Shown here: piece by piece, positions 21,493 to 21,660 of the stretch
Numbering within the stretch: the stretch's first letter is position 1
Layout: each line of letters begins with the position of its first letter
Source: an uncultured bacterium
GTDB lineage: Bacteria > Chlamydiota > Chlamydiia > Chlamydiales > FEN-1388
Length of the DNA: 64,000 nucleotides
Assembly: GCA_964487845.1 (NCBI GenBank)
Contig: CAZASK010000007.1
Coordinates: forward strand, 5,999-69,998
Direction: 5' to 3'
The notes under the pieces: generated by a model
Database searches by the model: none
Seen by the model: the letters and a program-made list of their open reading frames with translations, nothing else
Told to the model about the DNA's origin: nothing
Made by a program: the position numbers and the translations under genes

Positions 21493-21660
21493 TAGACCTC
21501 TTGCGTAATTAAGGGTTCGTCGCTTTTTGGGATTATTTTGGCCGCTTTTCGATTCGAATTACAGGGGTAATATCAACGGATATAATCCCTGTAATTCGAA
21601 TCGAAACGCGGATCAAAAGAACCCGAAAATCGACAGAACCTTAATTACGCAAGAGGTCTA
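21493..21660. repeat. 168-bp palindromic (hairpin-forming) repeat element, copy 1
   Basis: Outer arms tagacctcttgcgtaattaag... / ...cttaattacgcaagaggtcta and inner arms around cgattcgaattacaggg / ccctgtaattcgaatcg. The element is 165/168 identical to 51084..51251 in the same orientation. Confidence 0.9.

Follow-up and report, generated by a model that had tools for sequence, protein, structure and literature searches.

The stretch of DNA analyzed here, hereafter the window, comprises 64,000 nucleotides of contig CAZASK010000007.1 and belongs to the core chromosome of an environmental chlamydial bacterium that has not been cultured, with groEL, gyrA, gyrB, holB, tmk, ligA, glgB, yidC and dnaA among its genes. 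The closest relatives of its AlgH protein are 67-69% identical, and the named matches lower in the list come from Waddliaceae, Parachlamydia and Neochlamydia. Two nearly identical palindromic sequences, located 29.6 kb apart in this window, are very probably copies of a miniature inverted-repeat transposable element (MITE), that is, a non-coding and non-autonomous DNA transposon. The first one (copy 1) lies between two genes of the same strand, 18 nt past algH (whose stop codon ends at 21475) and 31 nt ahead of a 483-aa open reading frame (ORF) with its ATG at 21691, and the second one (copy 2) lies between two convergent genes, an ORF with a PEGA domain on the plus strand (stop codon ending at 51029) and holB on the minus strand. 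The two loci are composed as follows.

21491..21493, no strand: left target-site duplication of copy 1 (AAT), identical to 21660-21662
21494..21659, plus strand (the family's "+" orientation): copy 1 of the proposed MITE, element proper, 166 bp; nhmmer score of 178 bits against the family profile, hairpin fold
21494..21514, plus strand: left terminal inverted repeat AGACCTCTTGCGTAATTAAGG, in near-invariant columns, carrying stop codons in three frames inward
21547..21606, plus strand: inner helix (~22 bp per arm), 5-bp tip stem and 4-nt loop AACG, from the fold and from covariation
21558..21586, plus strand: promoter-like ATTACA-17-TATAAT, no more than a consensus match (10 of 12 positions), with its -10 in the loop region
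21639..21659, minus strand: right terminal inverted repeat, which outward on the plus strand carries a Shine-Dalgarno-like AAGAGG, 3 nt (TCT) before the element end
21660..21662, no strand: right target-site duplication of copy 1 (AAT)
51082..51084, no strand: left target-site duplication of copy 2 (ATT)
51085..51250, plus strand: copy 2 of the proposed MITE, element proper, 166 bp; nhmmer score of 178 bits, fold of -104.5 kcal/mol
51249..51251, minus strand: stop codon TAG of holB (ORF 51249..52181, minus strand), made of the duplicated T and the terminal AG of the element
51251..51253, no strand: right target-site duplication of copy 2 (ATT), followed by TTTG, the plus strand reading hairpin and then ATTTTTG

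An earlier inspection of the letters of this DNA (the sequence-only reading) had placed the two repeats at 21493-21660 and 51084-51251, in the same orientation and with 165 of 168 identical positions, all of which was verified by sequence comparison. The length of 168 bp holds for the repeat as such, but the element proper measures 166 bp, the outer T and A being part of the target duplication. The three mismatches (G at 21503 against A at 51094, C at 21607 against A at 51198 and A at 21612 against C at 51203) are indeed uncompensated, as had been proposed, and the family consensus assigns the ancestral left end to copy 1 and the ancestral right arm to copy 2. According to both pairwise comparison and a repeat search, the likeness does not extend past the element ends into the flanks, which are unrelated. 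A terminal 22-mer marks both ends of both copies with 0-1 mismatch, which makes four occurrences in the window where none would be expected, and a search of the 64 kb with the family profile detected no copy besides these two. Moreover, short-read (Logan) contigs of the same organism terminate ~30 nt into the element from both sides, which is the expected behaviour of a repeat.

Each copy forms a hairpin with ~80-bp arms. The long imperfect palindrome already recognized from the letters has two arms of 82 nt with 83-84% complementarity, separated by 4 nt; the inner arm had been drawn around a 20-nt loop, whereas a further 5 bp pair inside it and leave a loop of 4 nt. The RNA folds of the plus strand reach -105.6 kcal/mol for copy 1 (168 nt) and -104.5 kcal/mol for copy 2 (166 nt), with z about -18 relative to shuffled sequences (about -36 kcal/mol), and values of -96.6 for RNA of the minus strand and of -68 for single-stranded DNA were obtained. 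The terminal inverted repeats are perfect over 21-22 nt and lie inside a conserved end region of ~35 bp, the remainder of the element being self-complementary as well. No ORF of at least 50 aa is found inside the 166 bp, in agreement with the lack of coding capacity described before, and a 107-aa ORF with a TTG start (51118..51441), which begins in copy 2 and runs antisense to holB, was judged spurious. The promoter-like match is repeated in copy 2 at 51149-51177, and its TATAAT is not conserved elsewhere in the family. An IHF-like site in the loop (TATCAACGGATAT) was also considered and discarded, as it does not follow the IHF consensus when judged by reading.

Sequences related to these two copies are dispersed in many other genomes. 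A terminal 20-mer (GACCTCTTRCGTAATTAAGG) was found at 36 loci of ~15 assemblies, nearly all of them labelled Chlamydiae, Chlamydiales, Rhabdochlamydiaceae or Parachlamydiaceae, and metagenome contigs contributed 44 additional loci, giving 80 loci altogether. A profile built from 30 full-length copies recognized 110 regions in the 516 kb of these loci, 52 of them essentially full length, which rules out that the element is confined to two loci. The ends of the family, written as AGACCTCTTGCG...CGCAAGAGGTCT, are near-invariant in the 30 aligned copies, as are the outer ~35 bp across the family, and deletion variants of 147, 125 and 97 bp were found together with solo ends. The two copies of the window share 98.2% identity, and no copy of another genome exceeds 85% identity to them, which fits amplification within the lineage. 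The 27-mer of the inner arm had 0 matches in 185,579 species genomes (a collection that does not hold this genome), and the inner stem is lineage-specific. A BLASTN comparison of the element with plasmids and phages gave no match, and the 38 matches of a 15-mer of the end in viral contigs were attributed to chance, none of them being longer than the 15-mer or fitting the family profile. Two carriers bear labels from other phyla, namely Acidimicrobiaceae (CAWBQX010000001.1, locus L026) and Alphaproteobacteria (CAWKIU010000002.1, locus L038). Since their G+C contents are 42% and 38%, and one protein of L026 is 66% identical to a protein on another element-bearing contig, misbinning seems more likely than transfer across phyla. 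Finally, relatives sharing the gene order mlaE-mlaF-mlaD-algH-X-rpsI-rplM lack the element after algH.

The alignment of all elements with both ends revealed a flanking pattern common to the family, ANT-AGACC...GGTCT-ANT (hyphens mark the element ends). Perfect 3-bp repeats flank 30 of the 49 two-ended elements, a number that shuffling of the right flanks did not reach in 20,000 trials (mean 12.9, maximum 24, p < 5e-5). The middle base is A on both sides in 16 elements and T on both sides in 19, with one case each of AT and TA, so that 35 of the 37 A/T cases match (Fisher p = 2e-8), and the positions beyond the triplet agree just 10-12 times in 49. As other triplets also occur, such as ACT/ACT (L018) and TTT/TTT (L049, TTT-AGACC...GGTCT-TTT), the triplet belongs to the target and not to the element, and the terminal TA of each copy is half target and half element. 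A duplication of 3 bp is the parsimonious reading of these flanks, a 1-bp duplication within a longer inverted repeat being excluded only by L049. An orientation bias between AAT and ATT duplications was abandoned when an early count of 12:3 became 13:9 with more copies.

The dispersal of the family in many chlamydial genomes, its terminal inverted repeats and its target-site duplications all favour the non-autonomous mobile element, which was the option listed first in the sequence-only reading. Its spreading would start with a transposase provided in trans, most simply of the DDE type, that would bind the conserved ends. The target would be cut with a 3-nt stagger at ANT sites (mostly AAT or ATT) and the element inserted, and the repair of the stagger would leave 3-bp direct repeats on both sides. 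The two copies of the window would be recent and independent insertions from one master copy in this genome, as suggested by their 98.2% identity, their different duplications and their unrelated flanks.

A second property of the family is the constraint on its hairpin. Members of the family have a defined orientation: one arm differs from the other, and bulges and G.T positions recur unchanged through all subfamilies. Differences between subfamilies in the inner helix appear as paired substitutions (TTCGAATTACAGGGG/CCCTGTAATTCGAA, TTCAAAATTGGGGGG/CCCCCCAATTTTGAA and TTCTTTTTTGGGGGG/CCCCCAAAAAAGAA). Among 30 copies, paired cells amount to 96.1%, against 87.9% in shuffled sets, and changes on both sides affect 32 of 70 pairs, against 16.1 after shuffling, a value reached by 0 of 500 shuffles; a control with the partners slid by 1-3 columns scored far lower. 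In the inner helix, 23 of 36 pairs are compensatory, and most pairs are without any one-sided (G-U) change. This covariation indicates that the pairing itself is maintained, and, because the copies lie at random in one or the other orientation with respect to co-directional neighbouring genes (7 same, 9 opposite), the constraint is placed at the level of DNA. Formation of a hairpin or cruciform thus seems to matter, most likely as DNA and less likely as a strand-specific RNA. The inner pairing may be kept either through the mobilization of master copies, which would need the hairpin or cruciform, or through arm-to-arm correction by template switching, a mechanism of quasi-palindromes known from work in E. 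coli. In any case, the maintenance of the inner hairpin is the most unusual feature of the element.

The element also shows a peculiar fit to gene boundaries. Inward from its ends there is one stop codon per frame, T-AG (with the T from the duplication), TAA and TAA, all within 19 nt, and it is exactly at these three stops, 2, 15 or 19 nt into the element, that ORFs of related loci terminate. The distance between element end and stop codon falls between -19 and +6 nt in 20 of 30 cases. Copy 2 is an example of this arrangement, so the description of both copies as intergenic, adequate for copy 1, does not cleanly apply to copy 2, where holB takes its stop codon from the terminal AG of the element. 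The reconstructed empty site (..gttctATTtttg..) has a TAG in the same frame and position, and the HolB protein is consequently unchanged. On the opposite side, start codons are found 1-8 nt past the element end in related loci. At one of them (L030), the element sits inside a 2-nt spacer between stop and start (agaggattaATTatg) and supplants the displaced AGAGG at a similar spacing, and at another one (L010) it lies directly ahead of an ORF that we take from its N-terminus to be mnmG. The outward AAGAGG, present at each end of the element, could in this way stand in for a displaced ribosome-binding site. Insertions at stop codons are about twice as frequent as the available AAT/ATT sites would predict (9 observed, 4.8 expected, p about 0.006 under a crude null), and targeting of stop codons was rejected, the enrichment being just ~2-fold. 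Much of the adjacency to gene ends is probably due to short spacers and to selection against insertions within genes. Copies would survive within short spacers or right at gene ends, where the terminal stops and the AAGAGG would make the insertion tolerable.

Several other repeats and remnants were observed at the loci of the family. At L076 (1400-1440), a solo right-end remnant (CTTAGTTACACAAGAGGTCTAATG) encodes the last residues of an ORF (...YEVLVTQEV*) and creates a TAATG stop/start overlap with the next ORF, the two genes being presumably metN and metI. At L087 (about 4600-5130), which has the same gene order as the locus of copy 1, the spacer between algH and rpsI contains a different, nested palindrome of ~300 bp (GAGCCCACAGTGACTG...CAGTCACTGTGGGCTC around GAGCCCTTTAGGGCG...), indicating that sites of this kind harbour other families of hairpin repeats in Chlamydiae as well. 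Another palindrome (GTGCCGGTGCTTTAGCGCCGCTTT...AAAGCGGCGCTAAAGC...) encloses a solo element end in its loop at L021 (1257-1345) and L038 (7600-7690), two bins of one sample, one of which is labelled Alphaproteobacteria. The copies at L004 (2896-3186), L014 (from 1693) and L030 (6569-6897) are broken by other short palindromes, for example with GTTGCATAAG...CTTATGCAAC arms, which are nested insertions of further repeat families. Finally, short elements at L012 (5825-5935) and L026 (5786-5986) share only the terminal 12-18 nt (AGACGTCTTGCGTAATTC..., AGACCTCTTGCATAACC...) and have unrelated interiors, and could represent additional non-autonomous elements served by the same transposase.

The strength and conservation of the hairpin raise the question of whether the sequence rather acts in RNA or in transcription, as a bidirectional terminator, an mRNA-stabilizing hairpin or a substrate of RNase III, and is kept for the benefit of the host, with mobility being secondary or absent. 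The hairpin is very stable on both strands, compensatory changes preserve its base pairing, copies commonly lie directly past stop codons, and copy 2 is followed on the plus strand by ATTTTTG between convergent genes; moreover, transcripts of MITEs from other phyla have been reported as long stem-loops that affect the stability of upstream mRNAs (PMC2229807). However, the random orientation of the copies is hard to reconcile with such a role, as the arms are not equivalent and the G.T pairs of one strand become A.C on the other, and most pairs of the inner stem are without the one-sided G-U intermediates that selection on RNA should tolerate. Only copy 2 has a T-run, copy 1 being followed by AATGTAAAAC, and a terminator scan picked out only small internal sites of the minus strand, at the frequency expected from shuffling, and not the hairpin. 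No match to Rfam 15 was obtained in the whole window at gathering thresholds, and permissive settings yielded only models of plant and animal miRNA-precursor hairpins (for instance, 70.9 bits for a threshold of 249). Together with the absence of the element after algH in syntenic relatives and the 3-bp duplications, which show insertion events, these data make a host RNA improbable as the primary role, and the terminator, mRNA stabilizer and RNase III product that the sequence-only reading had also contemplated were not upheld as such.

If the hairpin acts as DNA, it could itself be the substrate of an HUH/Y1 enzyme mobilizing single-stranded DNA, as in REP/RAYT or IS200/IS605-like systems. 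The whole element is indeed a hairpin, its interior conserves pairing and not sequence, and no DDE transposase was found. Such elements insert without target duplication, however, whereas variable 3-bp duplications are present here, and REPs are 20-40 bp long with GTAG or CGTC heads (PMC3733652), in contrast to an element of 166 bp with AGACC ends and single, dispersed copies. As the window contains no RAYT, TnpA or Y1/HUH gene either, we consider this pathway very unlikely.

Slightly less likely still is a MITE derived from IS630/Tc1-mariner elements and duplicating TA, like the RUP of S. pneumoniae, which the sequence-only reading had offered as one way to read the TA at both ends. This TA is found at both ends of every copy, and most described bacterial MITEs have 5'-TA-3' termini, RUP being linked to IS630-Spn1 (PMC2229807). 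A duplication of TA is nevertheless contradicted by the duplicated ANT triplet, by the correlation of the middle base between flanks and by the TTT/TTT case, where L049 has no TA on the right. Moreover, the bases outside the TA are equal on both sides, so that the model needs an AXTAXT target, which is direct and not palindromic, and an IS630-like gene is found in neither the window nor the loci. As for a local segmental duplication, or a terminator conserved at these two loci only, its single asset is the count of just two copies in 64 kb, and it is practically dismissed by a similarity that ends exactly at the element ends, with unrelated flanks and different triplets, by the 110 related regions in other genomes and metagenomes, and by the contigs that break inside the element.

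The interpretation of the two sequences as copies of a MITE has its own weak points, to which the following observations belong. No transposase and no longer element with these ends was detected in the window (Pfam, ~40 ORFs), nor any transposase or ORF-bearing element with matching ends in the 516 kb of the 80 loci. The family was gathered by an exact match to one end, by which the apparent conservation of the ends is inflated, and the count of two copies derives from only 64 kb of the genome. Since the A and T of ANT hardly vary, the same sequence would also fit a 1-bp duplication within a longer inverted repeat, L049 alone discriminating between both. A comparison of filled and empty sites found no close enough genome in the databases, the best AlgH relative being 69% identical. 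Finally, covariation of the arms would not be expected if the element were purely passive, and its explanation is uncertain.

Insertion sequences are poorly assembled in metagenome-assembled genomes (MAGs) (PMC9997750), and the lack of a mobilizer is for this reason weak evidence. Three candidates for a longer element were examined and rejected: that of L070 (1.6 kb) consists of two fragments around a small gene of housekeeping type, that of L007 (2.3 kb) of two separate insertions with different duplications flanking one gene, and that of L076 (1.2 kb) of a full copy and the solo end remnant that bracket the presumed metN. The ORFs inside lone ends were likewise discarded as transposases, since their sequences look like housekeeping genes, which we read by eye as presumably glycyl-tRNA synthetase, BioF, a cupin, an SDR protein and an ABC binding protein. 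The interiors of these lone ends have in common only short matches to the other end of the element, and nothing beyond the element itself.

Mobility and structure could be joined in a broader scenario, which we regard as doubtful. Mobilization would need the folded hairpin, which would be recognized as a structure by a chlamydial transposase still propagating the element horizontally among chlamydiae with shared amoebae or other hosts, and some copies would have taken on a function at gene boundaries, insulating translation and restarting it within tight operons. Nearly the same element ends are found in chlamydial families with only ~65% identity between their housekeeping proteins; the inner stem stays paired through dozens of compensatory changes, and both ends bear the three-frame stops and the outward ribosome-binding-like site.

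A MITE restricted to one phylum, with near-identical ends in several of its families, would mark recent or continuing activity of mobile DNA, and possibly exchange between lineages, in environmental Chlamydiae, which are known mostly from MAGs. The element would also explain why contigs of these genomes repeatedly break in short-read assemblies. It points moreover to a transposase that, if found, would constitute a native transposition system for Chlamydiae, a group for which, to our knowledge, genetic tools are scarce. The insertions at stop codons and in 2-nt stop/start spacers, with unaltered proteins, offer a clean case of tolerated insertion, and the paired but variable interior is informative about how palindromic repeats retain their symmetry. 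No new kind of system is revealed. Our literature search turned up no paper on a MITE in Chlamydiae or on this sequence, and what we describe appears to be an undescribed family of a known class of bacterial repeats.

Other features of the window deserve mention. A 28-bp hairpin (41793-41852; 96% complementary, 4-nt loop) lies exactly between two convergent genes, a DAO-family oxidoreductase (40848-41816, plus strand) and an ankyrin-repeat gene (41852-43573, minus strand); its sequence is unrelated to the MITE, and it resembles a bidirectional terminator or one more small palindromic repeat. Upstream of a 300-aa AbiEii nucleotidyltransferase toxin (PF08843, 37688-38590), and overlapping it, there is a 223-aa ORF without Pfam match (region 37050-38590), and both form a probable type IV toxin-antitoxin pair amid core chlamydial genes. 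A single ORF of 3325 aa occupies positions 7796-17773 of the minus strand, with DUF3638 as its sole Pfam match. Two paralogues of MiaB-like radical-SAM proteins (UPF0004 and Radical_SAM) are present in opposite orientation (24704-26056, plus strand; 35608-36867, minus strand) and have in common 39-56-nt stretches of 77-80% complementary DNA. Finally, yidC is followed by dnaA at 60258-63602, the window end lying probably near the replication origin, and GC skew is negative over the entire window.

Among known transposition systems, a staggered target cut of 3 bp like the one proposed here is characteristic of several DDE families with 3-bp duplications, namely IS5-related/PIF-Harbinger elements, IS3 and IS30. 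The ends of IS3 are TG..CA, unlike the AGACC ends of the chlamydial element. Canonical Harbinger elements, which produce 3-bp duplications, are related to groups of IS5 (PMC12730594).

The closest parallels are the bacterial MITEs reviewed by Delihas, such as Correia/NEMIS, ERIC, RUP, RPE and YPAL (PMC2229807). As with the chlamydial family, these are non-coding elements of less than 200 bp with terminal inverted repeats and an A+T-rich target duplication, dispersed near genes, with transcripts predicted as long stem-loops and usually with no identified transposase (PMC2229807). The chlamydial element differs from them in its unrelated sequence, in its host phylum and in duplicating a 3-bp ANT instead of TA. 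No IHF consensus can be made out in the chlamydial family, nor an outward promoter that is conserved, whereas the Correia elements of Neisseria duplicate TA and have an IHF site in their long form. Correia elements are listed with TA at their termini and a target-site duplication (PMC2229807). In other respects Correia/NEMIS elements resemble the chlamydial family, as they measure ~107-155 bp, have long terminal repeats (24 bp in PMC2229807), exist as length-deletion variants, insert next to genes and depend on a mobilizer not yet identified. The YPAL/RU-2 of Yersinia (168 bp) and ERIC belong to the same length class and are also imperfect palindromes over their whole length; they are co-transcribed with upstream genes, and their recent mobility has been inferred from filled and empty sites (PMC2229807). 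YPAL, however, has no terminal TA, contains internal inverted repeats, is not A+T-rich and shows duplications of 3-26 bp (PMC2229807), whereas perfect terminal repeats and a duplication fixed at 3 bp distinguish the chlamydial element. RUP, mobilized by IS630-Spn1 in S. pneumoniae, shares the stops in all frames, the high similarity within a genome and the intergenic location (PMC2229807), but it targets TA and its ends match a known insertion sequence, in contrast to the 3-bp target of the chlamydial element, for which no matching insertion sequence was found. Finally, the RPE of Rickettsia (105-146 bp) are likewise palindromic and are found in bacteria with an obligate intracellular life (PMC2229807), but these repeats lie in frame inside genes and are translated, whereas the chlamydial element, with stops in all frames at both ends, touches only the last codons of its neighbours.

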